Shown here in pieces: positions 1,769 to 44,417 of a stretch of 64,000 bases of DNA. The stretch lies in the IMG/VR virus record IMGVR_UViG_3300043468_000945; one strand, 5' to 3'. A program made the translations under genes and the position numbers. Every line of letters begins with the position of its first letter. Within the stretch, counting starts at the first letter, position 1. This stretch comes from an uncultured virus (IMG/VR IMGVR_UViG_3300043468_000945). Taxonomy: Duplodnaviria; Heunggongvirae; Uroviricota; Caudoviricetes; Crassvirales. Below the pieces are notes generated by a model, which was not told where the DNA came from, made no database searches, and worked only from the letters and a program-made list of their open reading frames with translations.

Positions 1769-4175
1769 TGGCAGCCTCTTTACGTTTGTGAATAACAATC
1801 CAACGGCCTTGAATGTCGCGTCCTTCCTCAGGTGTAATGCCTTCCTTGTACAACCCGTATGCTACAAGCCATTTGTAGAATCGTGTACGGCTGATAGTAA
1901 GCTTGGCCTTCGGTCCGTAGTCGGGATACTCGTTGATGAAGTCTAGGTACAGGTCGTTCTTGTACAGCCTTTGTCCGGTGACGAGCATTTGGTTTCGCTC
2001 CTGACCTTCCACCAATCCGCACCACTCGATGAAGTCGTGTGATGTCTCTGCTGATAGTTGGCGAATCTTCAGGTTCACGAACTTGCTCTTCACCAATCCG
2101 GTTCTTAGGTAGTCCTTCAAGCATCCAATCATGTAGTTATCGAACTCGCACCAATCATCATCGTTCCAATCTCCGAACATGAGCTTACCGAACTCGTCCA
2201 ATGGCGTGTATGCCTTGGAATAGTACTGATGCAATTCAAGTTCCCACTTACGACGGGCGAATGAATTACCGCTGCCCTTGATGGCGTAGTTGGTGGTGAT
2301 GGCAATCTTGGGAGACTTGCTGAATGGAATCTTGATAGCGTCCTTGTTCTTCTTCTCAAGCGTCAGACCTTCAGTTACCACACTGAACAGGCGCTCGAAG
2401 TCGAAGTGCTTCTTCACGTCATCGAAGCAAAGAATCTGCGTGTCTGCCGATACCAACTGATAAGCGAAGCTTCGCTCGAATGTGAAACTCTTTCCGTCGA
2501 TTACCACTAGCTTCTTCATGCAGCTCAGTGCGTTCATGAATAGTCCCTTACCGGTTCCTCCCTCAGGGTTATCGCTGATAACCTCATCGTTCAGGATTAC
2601 GGCAGGACAGAAGCTCAGGTTCTTATAGCCATGGAGGAGGAACCCGATGGTGCTCTCCATTGACTGAGCTCTGCTCTCGTCTTCGCCACAGATGTTGCGA
2701 ATGAATTGTCGGTAGTTGCATCGGTCAGTTACCTCACACATGTTGAAGTTTCTGTCGATGACGTGGTCCTTCCATACGTATCCGCCTAGGTCTAGGTAGT
2801 CGATGGATACAATCTCATCCTTGCTTATTTTCACCGCGCAGTTTTTGTAGTACAGGTACGCTGCGTCCTTGGTGTCTTCGATGAAGTAGATGTCGATGGT
2901 TGATAGCATTGACAGGAACTCTTCCTTGAAGAATCGCGTGTTGTCAGCGAAGTAGTTGTAAACTGTGACGTCGTCTAGCTCGAGCAGGTGGTTGAGGACG
3001 AAGTCCTTTATCTCCTTCTCTGATGTGTGGTCGATGAGGTTATTGGTAACCTTCACGAACACGTAGTTCTTCCCACCCTCAGGGCAGTACTTGTAGAATC
3101 CTGAGTCCTCGAGGAATTGCTTGAACAGGATGTGAACAATCTTGATGATACCCTTATCGTTCTTGGTCCAAAAGGTTTGCTTCGCGTTCTCCTCCTCAAC
3201 CTTGGCGAGCACCGCATCGACGGTGTCGGGGTCTAGGTTTGACTCTGCAAGCTGAGAACGCACCTCCTTTTTTGATACACCTCTGCGTAGCTTGGCTTTG
3301 ATTTGATTTACTCGCTCCTCGTCTTCGTAGTACTTGGTCCCGAAGTTGGCTGTGTTCTTGTAGGCTGAATCAATCGTGATTTGAATCTCCTTGATTGAGA
3401 AGTCAGGGGTAGCATATTGGTTCAGTACGTAACCGGCTAGGCTCTTGTTGATGCCGTAGTCATTGAAGGCCATGGCTAGAACGTAGCAGTTCTGATTACG
3501 CTGTCCCTCTACCATGGGATACTTCTTGGTCCACCACTTTACGAGAATCTCTACAATCTTATTCTCGTCGGTGATAGGGATAGTAGGTTGGTCTCTGAAC
3601 TTACTTACCTCCCTGTACTCAGGCTCCTCGATGATGTCCCAAATTGAGGAGTTCTCGTTAACGTGGATTAGAGGGTCATAGGACTCGTAACACACGCGGC
3701 TGATGTTCTTGCTCGTCTTATCGAAATAAGGCGAATTAAAGTACTTTTCTAGGCTATTGAAGTAGTTTGTATGGTTCTCTGCATCTGCCGGGATTTTGAC
3801 TAGCACCTTTAGGCCATTCCCTGATGGACTGATGAAGACTGAATACACGTACTTGTTCTTGCATAGGTTCTCTTTGTCTTGGAGGAGTTCCTTTTGCTTC
3901 TGATACCCATCGAAGTCGAGGCATATCAATCCGCTGTGCTCAATCAATGCGCTGTCTGCTCTCTTGGTGAACGTACCGCTGAAGCATATCGCAGGCAATT
4001 GCTTCTTGAGTTCATTGCGCTCGGGCTTTCTCTTCTCTGCTCTGATTTTCTTTACAAGCTCCTTGGTTGCTCCTTCCTTAGTTCGCTCTAGGATTACGCG
4101 TACGTCTCTGTAGAACGGAGTAGATGTCTCCTTGATATTTTGGAAGATGGTTATGTTGTATGTCATTGCTGTCAT
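1755..4175 (-). CDS. primase-helicase (BT4734/VirE-N-like primase domain, PriCT-like region, P-loop helicase)
   Basis: HSGLICLDFD and FISPSGNGLK N-terminal motifs, GQRNQ PriCT-like motif, EGGTGKG Walker A, ILCFDD Walker B, ITTN. Confidence 0.85.
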   Translation of the reverse strand: MTAMTYNITIFQNIKETSTPFYRDVRVILERTKEGATKELVKKIRAEKRKPERNELKKQLPAICFSGTFTKRADSALIEHSGLICLDFDGYQKQKELLQDKENLCKNKYVYSVFISPSGNGLKVLVKIPADAENHTNYFNSLEKYFNSPYFDKTSKNISRVCYESYDPLIHVNENSSIWDIIEEPEYREVSKFRDQPTIPITDENKIVEILVKWWTKKYPMVEGQRNQNCYVLAMAFNDYGINKSLAGYVLNQYATPDFSIKEIQITIDSAYKNTANFGTKYYEDEERVNQIKAKLRRGVSKKEVRSQLAESNLDPDTVDAVLAKVEEENAKQTFWTKNDKGIIKIVHILFKQFLEDSGFYKYCPEGGKNYVFVKVTNNLIDHTSEKEIKDFVLNHLLELDDVTVYNYFADNTRFFKEEFLSMLSTIDIYFIEDTKDAAYLYYKNCAVKISKDEIVSIDYLDLGGYVWKDHVIDRNFNMCEVTDRCNYRQFIRNICGEDESRAQSMESTIGFLLHGYKNLSFCPAVILNDEVISDNPEGGTGKGLFMNALSCMKKLVVIDGKSFTFERSFAYQLVSADTQILCFDDVKKHFDFERLFSVVTEGLTLEKKNKDAIKIPFSKSPKIAITTNYAIKGSGNSFARRKWELELHQYYSKAYTPLDEFGKLMFGDWNDDDWCEFDNYMIGCLKDYLRTGLVKSKFVNLKIRQLSAETSHDFIEWCGLVEGQERNQMLVTGQRLYKNDLYLDFINEYPDYGPKAKLTISRTRFYKWLVAYGLYKEGITPEEGRDIQGRWIVIHKRKEAANDSE

Positions 4176-8052: not shown

Positions 8053-9108
8053 TTATAGTTCTGATTTATATATCATTACCTCATTCTCTTTGAACCACTC
8101 GTCGCATCCTTTGCAGTGGTAGTTTGAGAACCCGTCGTGCTCTAGGTCATGGAAGCAATTGATGCAGATGGGCCCCTCTTCGTCGAGGATGAAGTCGCTG
8201 TCGTCTTGGTCCGGCCCGTCGTCGAACAGGTCGAACTTGGGAAACGGCTCGCGCTTGTATGTCGGCATGGGGTAGGTCTCGTGCAGTACCTCTCCCTGAC
8301 TCTTTTGCATGAGGTTGAAGTACAGCCAACATGAAAGTGTCTTGCCCTTGGATGTAACGATGTCAATCTTTTTGCGGCGGTACCACGTTGGGTGCTGCTC
8401 GAGCCTGTCAAGCTTTGCCAATACCTCTTCGCTGACTTTGAAGATGTCCACCTCCACGTTGTACCCATGTCCACGCTCCTCAATCATGTAGGGCAGGCCC
8501 TTGATGACTAGGGGGTATTTGTCCTTGGTGGTACCTGAGCCCACGCGTTTGCTAGTGGTGAGGTAGTTGTAGTAGTTGCCGTGTCCTTTCTTGAGGGTGC
8601 CGTACACAGCAACAAGGTGCTCCTGTAGTACGTTTGGTTTACTGAACCATATTCCGTCGCGTTGGGTCCACATGTCTTTGTTGTAGATTTGGTAGGTCCT
8701 GTTCCTGACGTTGATGGTAACGAACCGGCATTCGTGCTGCTCTAGTTCTTTCTTCCACGTGTGACGCGGTAAGTCTCCCAATGTCTCGGCCAATACTTTG
8801 CTGTCTGATTTCTTGGCGTTGCCCAACCCGGGGATGGTCCCGTTCATCATGAGCAACTCGTTCTGATTCTTGCCGCAGATGAAGGGGTGGGTATTTGCCC
8901 TGTTCACCGCTCCCACAGTGGCGTACCTGAAGTGCGCGATGTATGGGCGCTCGGTGATGAGCAACTTGTGCTCTGATGATTTGTGGTAGGTCACCTCGAA
9001 GGTGTCCAACCAAACGATTCCCAACCCATGTGGGTTGATTTTGCCTGACGTCTTGGCTACCTCAGCGGATAGCACTTTGCCTGATGGTTTGATGATAATT
9101 ACACACAT
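8053..9108 (-). CDS. class II glutamine amidotransferase fused to gamma-glutamylcyclotransferase (AIG2-like) and a C-terminal Zn ribbon
   Basis: Start MCVIII (N-terminal nucleophile Cys), NPHGLG, HFRYATVG, NTHPF, NG, SDS; VYGTLKKG...LDRLE...WYRR; CINC...CKGC. Confidence 0.85.
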   Translation of the reverse strand: MCVIIIKPSGKVLSAEVAKTSGKINPHGLGIVWLDTFEVTYHKSSEHKLLITERPYIAHFRYATVGAVNRANTHPFICGKNQNELLMMNGTIPGLGNAKKSDSKVLAETLGDLPRHTWKKELEQHECRFVTINVRNRTYQIYNKDMWTQRDGIWFSKPNVLQEHLVAVYGTLKKGHGNYYNYLTTSKRVGSGTTKDKYPLVIKGLPYMIEERGHGYNVEVDIFKVSEEVLAKLDRLEQHPTWYRRKKIDIVTSKGKTLSCWLYFNLMQKSQGEVLHETYPMPTYKREPFPKFDLFDDGPDQDDSDFILDEEGPICINCFHDLEHDGFSNYHCKGCDEWFKENEVMIYKSEL

Positions 9109-9135
9109 AATTTGATTTGATTTGATTTGTGGGCA

Positions 9136-9151
9136 GTGTCTTTGAAGACAC
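9136..9151. repeat. 16-bp palindrome copy 2 (GTGTCTTTGAAGACAC), in the leader of the GATase gene
   Basis: Exact match, between promoter 9170-9177 and ATG 9108. Confidence 0.9.
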
Positions 9152-9169
9152 AGAACCCTAATTATTGTA

Positions 9170-9177
9170 CAAAGATA
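9170..9177 (-). promoter_or_regulatory. Bacteroidota -7 element (TATCTTTG)
   Basis: TAnnTTTG, intergenic, upstream of the GATase gene. Confidence 0.6.
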
Positions 9178-9197
9178 ATACAGAAATTGTACATTTC

Positions 9198-9356
9198 CTA
9201 ATTTTTTCTTGCTCTGAAGTGCGCTCTGACTAGCAGGGGATTCTCCCCGATGTGCCGGTAATACACTTTGTCGATGGCCTCCCATTTGGTGCAGGCGTAG
9301 ATGGTCTCCACTAGGTGCCCCCTGTAGAATACCTTGAAGAAGTACTTACTTTCCAT
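9198..9356 (-). CDS. small hypothetical protein
   Basis: MESKYFFKVFYRGHLVETIYACTKWEAIDK... Confidence 0.6.
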   Translation of the reverse strand: MESKYFFKVFYRGHLVETIYACTKWEAIDKVYYRHIGENPLLVRAHFRARKN

Positions 9357-10162: not shown

Positions 10163-10353
10163 TTCTCCTCCTGTTTCTCAGCCCTCATGGCGGCAGCGCC
10201 GTAGAGGATTTTGCGAGGGATAGGATACACGCAGTACAGCGCTTCCAAAAACTCCATGAACTCCTTGAGGTCTTTCTCCTCGTCGAGGTACAGCAGGCGG
10301 TCAATCAACCCTTGGATGATGTCGAGCCTTTCTTCAAAATTTGGTCTTTCCAT
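10153..10353 (-). CDS. hypothetical protein directly downstream of hammerhead 1
   Basis: ATG 20 nt after the ribozyme, A-rich leader. Confidence 0.65.
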   Translation of the reverse strand: MERPNFEERLDIIQGLIDRLLYLDEEKDLKEFMEFLEALYCVYPIPRKILYGAAAMRAEKQEEKCK

Positions 10354-10372: not shown

Positions 10373-10423
10373 CCCGTTTCGTCCTTTTGGACTCCTCAGC
10401 ACCGGCACTCACCGGTGGACGGG
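10373..10423 (-). ncRNA. type III hammerhead ribozyme 1
   Basis: Minus strand CCCGUC^CACCGG-UGAGUG-CCGGUG-CUGAGGA-GUCC-AAAA-GGAC-GAAACGGG; complete core and three perfect stems. Confidence 0.92.
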
Positions 10424-10424
10424 T

Positions 10425-10440
10425 GTGTCTTTGAAGACAC
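10425..10440. repeat. 16-bp palindrome copy 3, abutting hammerhead 1
   Basis: Exact match; arms extend to GTGTGTCTT/AAGACACAC. Confidence 0.9.
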
Positions 10441-10451
10441 ACTCCATGAAG

Positions 10452-10688
10452 TTATCGAAAATTGTGCACGGCGATTACCACGTACAACCCGATGATGTGG
10501 ATTATCCACGCTAGGCGGAACTTGTCCATGAGCCACCTTTCTTTTTCCGTATCCAACATGGATGATAGGATGACTCCGATTAGGGTCGCTAGGCCCATGA
10601 TGATGGATGCGACGATTGATGAGCAGAACAGGCTAGCATAGGATGGCATAGCGCTAAGGATTACTAGGAGGGCGATTGTCTTTTTCAT
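10452..10688 (-). CDS. small membrane protein
   Basis: Two to three hydrophobic segments. Confidence 0.65.
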   Translation of the reverse strand: MKKTIALLVILSAMPSYASLFCSSIVASIIMGLATLIGVILSSMLDTEKERWLMDKFRLAWIIHIIGLYVVIAVHNFR

Positions 10689-10689
10689 G

Positions 10690-10887
10690 TTACTTGGATT
10701 TAAAAATGATTGAAGTTAAAATGTTGTTTGTCTGTTCGTCGAAGAGGTCCTCCTCAACTGAAGCGATGATTTCGACGTCGCTGTCTTCGTCGTACCGGTA
10801 GTTGATGGTTACCTCGTTGAGGTCGATTCCCATGTCCTCAATCTCGTTGAGGAACTCCCGTAGATTGTGTGCTGTTAGTGGTTTCAT
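10690..10887 (-). CDS. small acidic hypothetical protein
   Basis: ORF in operon, D/E-rich. Confidence 0.65.
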   Translation of the reverse strand: MKPLTAHNLREFLNEIEDMGIDLNEVTINYRYDEDSDVEIIASVEEDLFDEQTNNILTSIIFKSK

Positions 10888-11102
10888 AGTTCGATGAGGA
10901 TTTGTCCTGTTTTGCTAATGTATCCGGCCTCAATAAGGGCGGCCGCGTTTCTCCCGTACCAACCCTGTAGGGTCCATGCAGCACCGCTCTCGATGAGGGC
11001 AGCCCATGCCTGTAGTTGGTCTTGCTCGCTTGGTTCGTAACCGCAGAACCCCTCGACGATTGAGCATGCGTCGTACGTTGTCATTTTTGTTGTTGCTTCC
11101 AT
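10884..11102 (-). CDS. hypothetical early protein
   Basis: LIESGAAWTLQGWYGRNAAALIEAGYI, a motif I recall from phage early genes; ATG at 11102. Confidence 0.7.
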   Translation of the reverse strand: MEATTKMTTYDACSIVEGFCGYEPSEQDQLQAWAALIESGAAWTLQGWYGRNAAALIEAGYISKTGQILIEL

Positions 11103-11557: not shown

Positions 11558-11743
11558 TTAAAAAAATATTTTTTTCAGGCCGAAAGGTGTGGCGCTTAGG
11601 TCGTAGTCAAAGTCGTACCCGTACGCCTGTACCTCAGCGCGTGCGTTCTCTAGGTCCGTGTACTCAGCGTCCTCGGGGAGGCTCAACAGGATGGCCGCCA
11701 CCTCAGCGGGCCATGTCTCGGGGTGATTGAATAAGTCTTGCAT
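11558..11743 (-). CDS. small acidic hypothetical protein downstream of hammerhead 2
   Basis: MQDLFNHPE...GYDFDYDLSATPFGL; ATG 20 nt after the ribozyme. Confidence 0.7.
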   Translation of the reverse strand: MQDLFNHPETWPAEVAAILLSLPEDAEYTDLENARAEVQAYGYDFDYDLSATPFGLKKIFF

Positions 11744-11762
11744 GTCGTTATTTTTTTGGTTT

Positions 11763-11813
11763 GCCGTTTCGTTCTTTGGAACTCATCAGGCGGAGCACTC
11801 ACTCCGCGACGGC
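11763..11813 (-). ncRNA. type III hammerhead ribozyme 2
   Basis: Minus strand GCCGUC^GCGGAG-UGAGUG-CUCCGC-CUGAUGA-GUUC-CAAA-GAAC-GAAACGGC. Confidence 0.93.
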
Positions 11814-11826
11814 CGGAGCCCCTCCC

Positions 11827-12747
11827 TTATTGGAGGAACTCGGCTATACTCGGGTCGATTTTGTTTTTGAGGATGAACGCTCTAAAGTGTCGGGCGTACT
11901 CGGTGATTTCGTCAACCTTTGCGGCGTCCTGTTCGTACATGCTCAACAGGATAGGGCGGAGGGTTTTGAGCAGCGCCTCGTGGCTCCCGTTCGGGCTCTG
12001 AATTGTGAAGCGCACCACCTCATAAAATAGTTCGTATCGGCGCATCATTTGCTTCACTGACTGAACGCGCGACGGAACGCGGAACTCAAGGCAGTTGCCC
12101 TTAACTAGGGCCGTTTGGTATTTGCGGTGGTTCCCTGTGCTGCTGTACTCGTACGAACCGCCCCATGAATTGAACACGCTGTCGCTGTTTGATTGCATGC
12201 GGCGATTTGCTCCGCAGTATTTCGTGTTTAGTCTTTTGCGCCACAGGGCCAAAACAATACCGCAATTTTTGCGGACCGCTTCGCGCAGTTGGTCTCCGTC
12301 CATGCCTTGCACCGCTATGGTGATATGGCCGCCGCAGCGCTTGTCGCTAGGGCTGAACCTATCGTCGACGATTTTCTCCGCCTTGTGCATCATGTCGAAT
12401 ACTTTGGTGCGCCATGTGCTCGCCGGAAGCAGCGGCAAAATGTGCGTAACCGCTTCATAACCGCATGAGCCGTCCGTCTCGAACCCACAAAAAAGTTCGT
12501 ACTCGTGCACCGCGTTCCTGTGCAGTTGGTTCTTCTCAACCTCGAAACCGATTGTGTATTTCGCGGCGTAGTCCATGCCGTCGAACGTTAGTTCTTCGCG
12601 GACCTTTGAGGCCTTGAGGCCCGCCACGTCGACGTGCTTCGCGCCTCTTGCATGGTTCAATGGGTCCGGCTTCCTGTGGTACCCCTGTACTTGACCGCGC
12701 ACCCTTTGGCCGGTCACTTTGTATTCAATTCCTTTTGCTGTATTCAT
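11827..12747 (-). CDS. putative COOH-NH2 ligase (amidoligase)
   Basis: TIGFEVE, ETDGSCGYE, CGGHITI, KY, LEFR motifs of the amidoligase family. Confidence 0.8.
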   Translation of the reverse strand: MNTAKGIEYKVTGQRVRGQVQGYHRKPDPLNHARGAKHVDVAGLKASKVREELTFDGMDYAAKYTIGFEVEKNQLHRNAVHEYELFCGFETDGSCGYEAVTHILPLLPASTWRTKVFDMMHKAEKIVDDRFSPSDKRCGGHITIAVQGMDGDQLREAVRKNCGIVLALWRKRLNTKYCGANRRMQSNSDSVFNSWGGSYEYSSTGNHRKYQTALVKGNCLEFRVPSRVQSVKQMMRRYELFYEVVRFTIQSPNGSHEALLKTLRPILLSMYEQDAAKVDEITEYARHFRAFILKNKIDPSIAEFLQ

Positions 12748-12764: not shown

Positions 12765-12780
12765 GTGTCTTCAAAGACAC
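12765..12780. repeat. 16-bp palindrome copy 4, 18 nt upstream of the amidoligase ATG
   Basis: Exact match. Confidence 0.9.
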
Positions 12781-13441: not shown

Positions 13442-13497
13442 AACTCGTTGAATTTTAAGGTTTTACGTTGTTTTGGGGTTCATTCCCCGTTCAATTC

Positions 13498-13520
13498 TTG
13501 TACAAATATAGTATAATTCT
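13498..13520 (-). promoter_or_regulatory. early promoter of the left arm
   Basis: Identical 23-mer to 11518-11540, contains TATATTTG. Confidence 0.75.
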
Positions 13521-13555
13521 TTAAACTACAACACAACAGCAAAAAAATTTTTTCG

Positions 13556-13813
13556 TCCCTGTGTTCAATTCTAGTTCATGCGCTGTTTACTAGGTGTTTA
13601 TAGTTGGTTCAATTCGGGTGCAATTGTTTGGGCATGTTTACAGGGAGGAGGAGGCAGCCCCCTCTCTCTGTGTCTTTGAAGACACAAACAGGGAGCAAGG
13701 AGGGAGGGACGGAGGCAAAGGAGGGAGCACAGGGAGGAGGAGCGGACGCACAACAGGGAGGGGACGGCGTCGCTGCACAGGCAGCGGCACCGGTCCCAAT
13801 GATGCACAGGGAA
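13556..13813. repeat. ACAGGGA(G) repeats in the purine-rich divergent junction
   Basis: Copies at 13640, 13688, 13729, 13753 and 13806, plus an inverted copy at 13556. Confidence 0.65.
13670..13685. repeat. 16-bp palindrome copy 5 (divergent junction)
   Basis: Exact match. Confidence 0.9.
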
Positions 13814-13942
13814 AAGCCAAAAAATCGGACGGAAGCGGACCAAATCGGACCCCCACCCCTCGAAAAAAAATCCGTTTCCCGGCGCGGGCCCAACGCGCCA
13901 ACCGGGTATATAGCCTCGAACCCCTATGTATCTAGAAATGAT

Positions 13943-13950
13943 TATCTTTG
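13943..13950 (+). promoter_or_regulatory. Bacteroidota -7 element (TATCTTTG)
   Basis: First plus-strand promoter element. Confidence 0.6.
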
Positions 13951-13965
13951 AAAAAACTTATCACC

Positions 13966-14160
13966 ATGAAGAAATACAATGGATTAACGGTAGAGGGTGG
14001 TCGATTGATTAATCGACGTCCTAATGGAATGACAGGCATCCAACAGGCTGCTCAGATTAAGAAGGAGATGAAGCGTCAGGATAAAATTCAGATGATGTCT
14101 GAAGCAATGTATCAGGCGGAGATTCGAGCTGACTTAACTGAGAAGTTAATGGAGCGCTAG
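13966..14160 (+). CDS. small hypothetical protein
   Basis: MKKYNGLTVEGGRLINRRPNGMTGIQQAAQIKK; flanked by promoter and terminator. Confidence 0.7.
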   Translation: MKKYNGLTVEGGRLINRRPNGMTGIQQAAQIKKEMKRQDKIQMMSEAMYQAEIRADLTEKLMER

Positions 14161-14179
14161 TCTTTTTTTTGGTTGGTAG

Positions 14180-14213
14180 AAGAGGGGGTCTTTTTAGGTC
14201 TCCTCTTTTTTTT
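14180..14213 (+). terminator. Rho-independent terminator
   Basis: AAGAGGGGGTCT-TTTT-AGGTCTCCTCTT (with G-U pairs) followed by a T tract. Confidence 0.7.
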
Positions 14214-14229
14214 GTTCTTACTACTAGAT

Positions 14230-14395
14230 AATCGACATAGTACTGTACTATTTTATGACATTTATATTATTCATTTTCAATTAGTTGTCGAAAATGTCGA
14301 TTTATAAAAAGGTTTCTAATGGGAAAAATATAATAAAAGGGAGGAAAATATATATATATATAGGGAAGGATGAAAAAGTGTGATTTCGTCAATTG
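14230..14395. other. second AT-rich origin-like element
   Basis: TTGTCGAAAATGTCGATTT followed ~60 bp later by (TA)n-GGGAAG, as at 4221-4304. Confidence 0.4.
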
Positions 14396-14407
14396 AACAA
14401 AAGTTAT

Positions 14408-14415
14408 TAAATTTG
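14408..14415 (+). promoter_or_regulatory. -7 element (TAAATTTG) upstream of groEL
   Basis: TAnnTTTG. Confidence 0.6.
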
Positions 14416-14433
14416 TGTACTAAATCAAATTAA

Positions 14434-18435: not shown

Positions 18436-18574
18436 CAAACTTTCTAAAACCATACAAGAGAAGCAAGGCATCAGTTCCAAAAGAGCTGATGCCGTTGCTG
18501 CTTTTATAGGTCGCAATAAGTACGGTAAAAAAAAGTTTCAACAAATGGCTACGGCCGGTAAAAAGAAGAAGTGA
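18422..18574 (+). CDS. small basic protein (50 aa)
   Basis: Own translation MSKFSKLSKTIQEKQGISSKRADAVAAFIGRNKYGKKKFQQMATAGKKKK. Confidence 0.65.
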   Translation: MSKFSKLSKTIQEKQGISSKRADAVAAFIGRNKYGKKKFQQMATAGKKKK

Positions 18575-42921: not shown

Positions 42922-44343
42922 ATGGCTGTATTAAACACCCCCGGGTATCAGCTTCAGCCGAGTGCTGAGCAGGTACCATTGTCAACTAACTACATTACCA
43001 ACTTCGACTTCTTGAATCAGTATCTTCCTGATACCTACGAGAAAGAATTTGAGCGTTACGGTAATCGTACTGTCGCATCTTTCCTCCGTATGGTAGGTGC
43101 TGAAATGCCTTCTAACTCAGACATGATTAAATGGGCTGAACAAGGTCGTTTGCATACTAAGTATGTAAACTGTGATTCTTCTGCTGCTGCAGCTGCTGAC
43201 TCCGCGACTATCACCGTGAATGATGCAAACGTAACTGCAATTGCAATCCGTGCCGGTCAGACTGTATTCATCTCTGACAACGCTACAGGCCTTTCTAACA
43301 AAGGTATCGTTACTGTAGTAGACGTTCCTAACAACACTTTCGACGTAGCTTACTACGAAGGTGGTGGTCAAGCTTTCTCAGGAACTGCCGTACTTTCTGT
43401 ATGGATTTATGGTTCTGAATTTAAGAAAGGAACTGTTGGAATGATTGGCTCTTTGGAAAGCGAAGACGAGTTCTTCGAGAACTCTCCAATCATCATTAAG
43501 GACAAATACGCTGTAAGCGGTTCTGACATGGCTCAGATTGGATGGGTTGAAGTTACCACTGAGAACGGTGCTACCGGTTACTTGTGGTACTTGAAGAGCG
43601 AGCACGAAACTCGTTTGCGTTTCGAGGATTACCTTGAGACTGCAATGATTGAAGCCGTTCCTGCTGAAACAGGTTCAGGTGTTGCTAACGCTTCTTTAAA
43701 CCCAATCTACGGTAACAAAGGTTCAGAAGGTATCTTCTACGTTGTTAACAACCGTGGTAACGTTTGGGGCGGTGGTAACCCAACTACCTTGGCTGATTTC
43801 GATAGCATCATCTCTCGTTTGGACAAGCAAGGCTCTATCGAAGAAAACGTAATCTTCGTAAACCGTGCCTTCAGCTTCGACATCGACGACATGTTGGCTG
43901 CTCAGAACAGCTACGGTGCAAACGGTACCTCTTACGGTCTGTTTGACAACGACAAGGACATGGCTTTGAACTTGGGCTTCACCGGGTTCCGTCGTGGTTA
44001 CGACTTCTACAAGTCTGATTGGAAGTACTTGAACGACCCAACCATGCGTGGTGGTCTTCCTACTGCTTCTACAGCTGTGGGTACCGTAACAGGTCTTTTG
44101 GTTCCTGCAGGTTCTACGAACGTGTACGACCAAATCATGGGTAAAAACGCTAAGCGTCCTTTCTTGCACGTACGTTACCGTGCGTCTGAGACTGAAGACC
44201 GTCGTTACAAAACTTGGATTACAGGTTCTGCCGGTGGTGCTCAGACAAGCGACCTTGATGCAATGGAGGTGAACTTCCTCTCTGAGCGTTGCGTTTGTAC
44301 CTTGGGTGCTAACAACTTCGTATTGTTCCGCTACGGCGCATAA
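42922..44343 (+). CDS. major capsid protein
   Basis: 473 aa, strongly biased codon usage, position after the scaffold, followed by a strong terminator. Confidence 0.85.
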   Translation: MAVLNTPGYQLQPSAEQVPLSTNYITNFDFLNQYLPDTYEKEFERYGNRTVASFLRMVGAEMPSNSDMIKWAEQGRLHTKYVNCDSSAAAAADSATITVNDANVTAIAIRAGQTVFISDNATGLSNKGIVTVVDVPNNTFDVAYYEGGGQAFSGTAVLSVWIYGSEFKKGTVGMIGSLESEDEFFENSPIIIKDKYAVSGSDMAQIGWVEVTTENGATGYLWYLKSEHETRLRFEDYLETAMIEAVPAETGSGVANASLNPIYGNKGSEGIFYVVNNRGNVWGGGNPTTLADFDSIISRLDKQGSIEENVIFVNRAFSFDIDDMLAAQNSYGANGTSYGLFDNDKDMALNLGFTGFRRGYDFYKSDWKYLNDPTMRGGLPTASTAVGTVTGLLVPAGSTNVYDQIMGKNAKRPFLHVRYRASETEDRRYKTWITGSAGGAQTSDLDAMEVNFLSERCVCTLGANNFVLFRYGA

Positions 44344-44356
44344 TCGAAGAAGAAAT

Positions 44357-44394
44357 AGGGGTGGTGTGTCTTCAAAGACACACCCCCTTTTTTT
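44357..44394 (+). terminator. terminator after the capsid gene, built around 16-bp palindrome copy 8 (44366-44381)
   Basis: GGGGTGGTGTGTCTTCAAAGACACACCCCC followed by T7. Confidence 0.85.
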
Positions 44395-44417
44395 AAAATT
44401 TTATCAAATCATATCAA

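Follow-up and report, generated by a model that had tools for sequence, protein, structure and literature searches.

A type III hammerhead ribozyme in a predicted early operon of an uncultured tailed phage, and the elements found at the same gene junction in its relatives

Hammerheads and tRNA-like elements in known systems

Hammerheads that occur in clusters and flank genes have been described in prophages by Perreault et al. 2011 (PMC3088659), with cleavage both in vitro and in E. coli and with a proposed role in the processing of long phage transcripts. The U10.1-U11.1 variant was already described in that work. Two reviews supply a wider setting. One of them (PMC6155905) presents a reverse Hoogsteen pair as a conserved part of the contact between loop 1 and loop 2, the other (PMC6765202) presents gene neighbourhoods shared by twister ribozymes and bacterial hammerheads, and in both the role of hammerheads in bacteria and phages is treated as still open. 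Apart from ribozymes, tRNA punctuation is exemplified by the t-elements of plant mitochondria, as treated in Forner et al. 2007 (PMC1920247).

The hammerheads considered here were found in a window of 64,000 nucleotides (the whole stretch of DNA that was analysed, IMG/VR record IMGVR_UViG_3300043468_000945) and in related phage genomes. They are like the prophage clusters in class and core, in their phage context, and in lying between genes on the sense strand. As in those clusters, several copies can occur within a few kb and bracket single genes or short blocks (two to four copies in 41 of the 67 sources that contain them), and the same role is proposed, the conversion of long phage transcripts into gene-length mRNAs. 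They differ from the prophage clusters in clade, since they belong to podophage-like genomes of about 60 kb from uncultured phages of freshwater and the sea. They also differ in position, which is fixed with respect to a hairpin on the upstream side and a leader without a Shine-Dalgarno match, and in that most copies score below the Rfam cut-off. What is new here is a further phage clade with an already known kind of clustered hammerhead.

RiboJ-type insulators are engineered parts derived from a satellite-RNA ribozyme. With these the phage elements share the placement of a type III hammerhead just upstream of a coding sequence, where the cut gives, or in the phage would give, a defined 5' end and uncouples the gene. 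Unlike RiboJ, the phage hammerhead is natural and is repeated along an operon.

Literature searches for hammerheads in phages of Flavobacterium or Cellulophaga returned no paper. One cultured phage of each of these hosts was found to carry a copy. In Flavobacterium phage vB_FspP_elemoA (locus L084, MT497065.1) a type III copy at 18488-18546 on the minus strand scores 39.9 bits and lies 12 nt before a coding sequence, and in Cellulophaga phage phi18:3 (locus L083, KC821620.1) a type I copy is located at about 1490-1550, between gp050 and gp049. The latter stands about 1 kb upstream of the anti-restriction gene ardA. A blastn search with the 57-nt hammerhead also gave intergenic matches in six Streptomyces phage genomes (Yara, Wentworth, Lizz and others), at 2-3 places in some of them; judged by sequence, these may be hammerheads of another phage group.

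The window and its two hammerheads

The window comprises most of the genome of a tailed phage from lake water. From 14.4 kb on, the plus strand encodes a GroEL-like chaperonin, an endolysin, giant tail proteins, the terminase, the portal and virion proteins. The minus strand carries, from 1 to 13.4 kb, genes for a helicase, a primase, an exonuclease and a Sak-like annealing protein along with many small ORFs. Between these divergent leftward and rightward blocks lies a gap of almost 1 kb (13442-14433) with a palindrome at 13670 and G/A-rich runs, and this gap is likely a control region. No tRNA gene was found within the window. The terminase shares 80.7% identity with that of an uncultured podovirus record (MW202828) and 45% with that of Flavobacterium phage vB_FspP_elemo; the remaining matches fall below 60% identity and include Cellulophaga and Tenacibaculum phages. 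Because the terminase relatives are phages of Flavobacterium, Cellulophaga and Tenacibaculum, the host is likely a member of the Bacteroidota. A-rich leaders without a Shine-Dalgarno match fit such a host.

The first hammerhead, HH1, occupies 11763..11813 on the minus strand and is identified by its sequence, by Rfam RF00008, by its minimum-energy fold, by R1 (a covariance model built from the alignment of relatives) and by covariation. Read from 11813 to 11763, it begins with the 5' strand of stem III and the GUC triplet (GCCGUC, 11813-11808). The stem I hairpin (GCGGAG UGAGUG CUCCGC, 11807-11790), the core CUGAUGA (11789-11783), the stem II hairpin (GUUC CAAA GAAC, 11782-11771), the GAAA (11770-11767) and the 3' strand of stem III (CGGC, 11766-11763) follow, letter for letter as a first-pass annotation had read them. 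The core is complete (C3 U4 G5 A6 N7 G8 A9 ... G12 A13 A14). The N-U-H triplet is GUC at 11810-11808, and its U11809 pairs with A11767 to give the A15.1-U16.1 pair. C17 is base 11808, and the predicted cut falls between 11808 and 11807, where the first pass had placed it. The helices have 7, 4 and 5 pairs; loops close stems I and II, and stem III is open, in the Rfam structure alignment as well as in the minimum-energy fold.

When 351 nt were searched, HH1 matched RF00008 (Hammerhead_3) over its full length (1-54 of 54) with E 4.9e-8. The score, 42.1 bits, is under the curated gathering cut-off of 48.5 bits, which is an annotation threshold and no structural feature. A scan of the whole window at Rfam gathering thresholds returned no entries, in the case of HH1 because its score is below that cut-off. 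The minimum-energy fold is the three-stem hammerhead, with -20.5 kcal/mol, 49% of the ensemble and a z of -2.15, and with the R1 model HH1, itself a member of the R1 seed, scores 77.6 bits. The type III identity assigned at first pass is borne out by the core, the GUC triplet, the three stems, the Rfam match and covariation across 82 relatives, and HH1 is almost certainly a real hammerhead.

HH1 is separated from the TAA (11829-11827) of the upstream gene, a 306-aa ORF at 11827..12747 on the minus strand, by a spacer of 13 nt (11814..11826, minus strand), as the earlier reading had it. This spacer contains a GC-rich inverted repeat, GGAG GGG CUCC, that was read by eye; a strong hairpin occupies the place in relatives, and the one upstream of HH1 itself is weak. 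On the other side, an A-rich leader without a Shine-Dalgarno match (11744..11762, minus strand) leads to the next ATG at 11743-11741. It measures 19 nt, one fewer than the 20 nt first counted. The ATG opens an ORF of 61 aa (11558..11743, minus strand) with a weak match to PHROG 37263.

The upstream gene had been named an amidoligase. Its 306-aa product has relatives at 45-65% identity on 80 viral contigs and found no family match in Pfam (E up to 10), PHROGs or NCBIfam. What speaks for the name is the ESM Atlas, where one family set takes 26 of 30 feature hits and, in the cluster shown for that set, 12% of the members carry PF12224 (Amidoligase_2). Amidoligase identity is a weak lead on this basis, made plausible by a fusion of glutamine amidotransferase and gamma-glutamyl cyclotransferase encoded at 8053..9285 on the minus strand. 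Within the latter ORF, an ATG-TGT (Met-Cys) near 9103 comes after a palindrome and an A-rich leader (window 9090-9151, minus strand). The ORF has probably been called too long, with its true start near 9103, and a Met-Cys start there suits a class II glutamine amidotransferase because such an enzyme has an N-terminal cysteine.

Further along the same predicted operon, 1390 nt downstream of HH1, is another type III hammerhead, HH2 (10373..10423, minus strand). It was picked up by a descriptor scan, has the core CUGAGGA and scores 73.9 bits with R1, of whose seed it is also a member. The predicted cut is between 10418 and 10417, and a 19-nt A-rich leader again follows, with the ATG at 10353. Immediately 5' of HH2 is a conserved palindromic hairpin, GUGUCUUCAAAGACAC (10425..10440, minus strand), which would form the 3'-terminal structure of the upstream fragment once HH2 had cut.

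This palindrome, GTGTCTTCAAAGACAC, is 16 nt long and recurs throughout these genomes. The window holds 9 copies (starting at 570, 9136, 10425, 12765, 13670, 17887, 37261, 44366 and 59057) versus 0.04 expected, and 336 copies are spread over 78 of the 81 related sources. Most of them are intergenic and stand ahead of leaders. The palindrome is conserved in sequence, with a few compensatory variants, and could be either a hairpin that protects RNA ends or a protein-binding site. The copy at 12765..12780, assigned to neither strand, is inside the 37-nt gap upstream of the 306-aa gene. The copy at 44366 is extended by extra G/C pairs and followed by a T run (window 44358-44395, plus strand), directly past a capsid-like gene at 42922..44343, and from its sequence it looks like an intrinsic terminator.

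The family in related phages and the elements that share its gaps

The comparison set consisted of the 80 viral contigs with a homolog of the 306-aa protein and the window itself, 81 sources in total, with about 6.9 kb fetched per locus. In the resulting 575 kb a hammerhead descriptor gave 103 matches, all on the gene-sense strand, compared to 0.2 per mononucleotide-shuffled replicate. Covariation was evaluated on 82 distinct aligned sequences. In these, 97.9% of the cells pair, both partners have changed in 12 of 16 pairs, and the covariation score reaches 0.692, versus 0.230 for shuffled alignments and at most 0.135 when the partners are slid. None of 500 shuffles reached the observed percent paired, the number of cells with both-side changes or the covariation score. 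Because pairing was a requirement of the descriptor with which the 82 copies were chosen, the percent paired is partly circular; this does not apply to the number of pair types or to the chance expectation, which is close to zero.

With the R1 model, 125 full-length copies were detected in 67 of the 81 sources (2 in the window and 123 in the loci), every one of them gene-sense. Within the roughly 6.9 kb fetched, 26 sources have one copy, 25 have two, 15 have three and 1 has four. Across the 103 distinct copies the core is invariant except for one A9U, and U16.1 and A15.1 are invariant in all 103. The cut triplet is GUC in 70, GUA in 32 and GUU in 1. The U10.1-U11.1 variant accounts for 15 distinct copies, 14 of which have A17. 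The 5' U of loop 1 and the 3' A of loop 2, which the first-pass annotation took for the two sides of the tertiary contact of natural type III hammerheads, are found in 103 of 103 distinct relatives. Such invariance fits a conserved loop-loop contact, of the kind by which type III hammerheads cleave fast at low Mg2+, though it does not single out which bases are partners. Only 4 of 55 copies in 20 loci reach the RF00008 cut-off; with most copies below it, the family escapes routine annotation. A narrow exact pattern retrieved 92 stretches from IMG/VR, mostly on contigs of 40-66 kb.

The median distances of the copies are 33 nt from the previous stop and 26.5 nt to the next start, and A/C-rich leaders like that of HH1 follow most family members. 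Copies are mostly intergenic; under permissive ORF calling, sense ORFs of 100 aa or more enclose 15 of the 125, and antisense ORFs of that size overlap 5. Of the 79 loci that could be evaluated, 63 have a type III hammerhead within 60 nt past the stop of the homolog. Three complete relatives have 3-4 copies within 3-4 kb and no others in the genome. Consecutive copies are 219-2681 nt apart, a distance that corresponds to one gene or a small block. For 77 of the 125 hammerheads the 16-nt palindrome ends no more than 40 nt upstream. More generally, the 28 nt upstream of hammerheads have a median folding energy of -13.4 kcal/mol versus -1.7 for random 28-mers, and 80% fold at -6 kcal/mol or better versus 12.5% of random ones. 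The usual order of elements in relatives is hairpin, cutter, A-rich leader and ATG.

A type III copy is missing from the roughly 3 kb around the homolog in 14 of the 80 loci, and none was found in MW202828, the closest GenBank record by terminase. The type III element is therefore dispensable. The record nearest to the window, a 28-kb fragment, gave no hammerhead match either, but this result is uninformative. Another kind of RNA, a tRNA mimic, fills the place in 11 of the 16 loci that lack a type III hammerhead after the homolog. In the slot after the homolog, 63 of 79 loci have a hammerhead, 11 a tRNA mimic, 3 the palindrome alone and 2 none of these. Hammerhead and mimic never occur together in that slot, and some cutter is present in 74 of the 79. 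One of the two loci counted as having none (L001) contains a tRNA-like fold with a long linker. The slot before the homolog is different in composition: palindrome alone in 40, nothing in 26, a mimic in 6, a type III hammerhead in 5, and a type I hammerhead and a twister-P3 in 1 each.

The tRNA mimics are about 42 nt in length and consist of a 7-bp acceptor stem, a linker of 10-12 nt with an invariant GG, and a 5-bp T stem with a GUUCGANUC T-loop. They have no anticodon or D arm, and they are found on the sense strand between early genes (e.g., L027:3318-3360; L042:2000-2042 and 3865-3906; L064:2936-2977 and 3920-3960). In complete genomes they are clustered in the same early region. The model built for them, R2, shows 95.2% pairing and double changes in 11 of 12 pairs. 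Its 32 matches are all on the sense strand, with none in the window, and one of the 32 belongs to a real tRNA. Neither ARAGORN nor Rfam called a canonical tRNA at the mimic sites; a real tRNA-Arg in L078 lies elsewhere. The closest analogue is the plant-mitochondrial t-element, likewise a tRNA-like fold between coding regions and a proposed site for RNase P/Z in making mRNA ends. Unlike t-elements, the phage mimics are reduced to acceptor stem, GG-bearing linker and T arm, and they alternate with self-cleaving ribozymes at one junction. Literature searches returned no description of tRNA mimics that alternate with ribozymes in phages.

A descriptor scan also picked up full-length tRNA-shaped genes in the same operon of many relatives, 1-3 per locus, sense-oriented and at a distance of about 1-2.5 kb upstream from the homolog (L041, L046, L051, L055, L058-L060, L063, L065, L068-L070, L078 and L079). 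Those of L078 are the ones confirmed by ARAGORN and Rfam.

Type I hammerheads occupy other gaps of the same operon. There are 14 in 11 loci, all on the sense strand (e.g., L011:4159-4210 and L029:4443-4500). The twister-P3 is located in the gap before the homolog at L057:2889-2966 and scores 61.8 bits, above its cut-off. It agrees with the published sharing of gene context between twisters and hammerheads, and it is the only twister in the 36 of 80 loci covered by the Rfam scan. Two further loci (L052:3987-4040 and L078:3969-4022) have, in the hammerhead slot, a conserved hairpin with the loop UCAGAAACG followed by AUUUGGUGGUAGAAAC. This hairpin has no Rfam match and was found in these two copies only.

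On a FastTree tree of the neighbouring gene, at least 7 swaps between hammerhead and mimic are required, a rough figure given the many weak branches. The rows nearest the window on that tree (L001, L073 and L006), placed there with weak support, carry a mimic.

Proposed separation of cistrons and competing readings

The proposal for HH1 starts from the observed motif, its conservation, strand, position and covariation. A role in mRNA processing is plausible because HH1 is on the sense strand, between genes, and within a run of leftward-oriented replication genes and small ORFs. That the genes on either side share one transcript is an assumption taken from their order. Among the sequencing runs listed as containing this DNA, none is recorded as RNA; contigs of one run labelled RNA-Seq cover 10665-10927 and are probably derived from DNA. 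On this genomic evidence, self-cleavage probably serves to separate the cistrons of an early operon in a Bacteroidota phage.

We infer from these data that the HH1 strand is transcribed, that it is cut in vivo and that stability and translation are affected, in the following form. HH1 would be transcribed within the leftward (minus-strand) early operon of a tailed phage of roughly 60 kb and, being predicted to be competent, would fold during transcription and cut after C11808. A 2',3'-cyclic phosphate a few bases past the stop codon would then mark the end of the upstream message, and at HH2 and in most relatives this end would fall just behind a stable hairpin. The downstream message would start with a 5'-OH and consist of the folded ribozyme body, the 19-nt A-rich leader and the ATG, that of the 61-aa ORF in the case of HH1. 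Neighbouring cistrons would in this way be uncoupled, each with its own ends, stability and translation.

The same RNA could also act as a conditional switch, with a cleavage rate set by Mg2+ or temperature, or by a protein or competing folds, so that the downstream small genes are turned up or down during infection. Regulated cleavage is raised for phage hammerheads in Perreault et al. 2011 (PMC3088659), the weaker U10.1-U11.1 variant is present in 15 of 103 distinct relatives (with A17 in 14 of them), and the hairpin that abuts stem III could compete with folding. HH1 and HH2, however, are canonical throughout the core, and their stems are short and closed. The minimum-energy fold of HH1 is the active secondary structure and already makes up 49% of the ensemble, and no ligand-binding or alternative conserved structure is seen in the alignment. 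A switch is an unlikely reading of this locus.

It is still harder to view the elements as selfish or decaying passengers, remnants of a mobile RNA or DNA element that settled in intergenic gaps and have no role for the phage. Presence and copy number do differ among close relatives, and cassettes have been swapped at one site (the minimum of 7 changes comes from the weakly supported FastTree tree). But decay is difficult to reconcile with a core that is invariant in 102 of 103 distinct copies next to a protein only 45-65% identical, with strictly sense orientation (125 of 125) at a fixed distance to the next ATG, or with the presence of some cutter in 74 of 79 slots after the homolog. An origin of this kind without function is improbable.

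Ligation is an established part of hammerhead chemistry. The 1.39-kb block between HH1 and HH2 might be excised and circularised, joined by the reverse reaction or by a host ligase of the RtcB type. A same-strand pair of hammerheads does bracket this block of small ORFs, stem III is similar enough between copies within a genome that a hybrid hammerhead could form, and 5'-OH and cyclic-phosphate ends suit ligation. Against this, 26 of 67 sources have a single copy in the roughly 6.9 kb fetched, and a tRNA mimic, which would leave different ends, can replace the hammerhead. In Perreault et al. 2011 (PMC3088659), spliced or circular products of the clustered prophage hammerheads were sought and none was found. 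Circle formation is improbable. A chance match to a short motif, which a score under the Rfam gathering cut-off might suggest, has next to no probability and is refuted by the E value of 4.9e-8, the shuffle control (0.2 descriptor matches per replicate versus 103 observed), covariation and the shared gene junction, with orthologous copies at that place in 63 of 79 loci.

Because different cutters substitute for one another at one junction, it is suggested that cutting itself, and not one particular RNA, is what has been kept, and this substitution argues that the cut is the selected function. The first-pass annotation had supposed that the phage processes its early message without host RNases. 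Independence from host enzymes would be no rule of the clade, because 11 of 79 relatives hold in the slot a tRNA mimic, which from its structure would need host RNase P or Z. A broader, tentative reading, to which somewhat less than even chances are given, is that the early operon of this clade offers swap sites in its gaps, where one RNA-cutting cassette can stand in for another, be it self-cutting (type III hammerhead, type I hammerhead or twister) or a tRNA mimic of roughly 42 nt that would recruit host RNase P or Z. Under this swap-site reading the usual place of a cassette would be about 20 nt ahead of a start codon without a Shine-Dalgarno match, with a protective hairpin on its upstream side.

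The junction amounts to a natural experiment. It is conserved in at least 80 phage genomes, most of which have the hammerhead, some the tRNA mimic and a few neither, and phage vB_FspP_elemoA is a cultured relative with a family member that is amenable to bench work. If the swap-site reading is true, these phages would provide a natural counterpart of the ribozyme- and tRNA-based polycistron designs of synthetic biology. If the cassettes are true functional equivalents, the separation of cistrons would be a requirement of gene expression in these phages.
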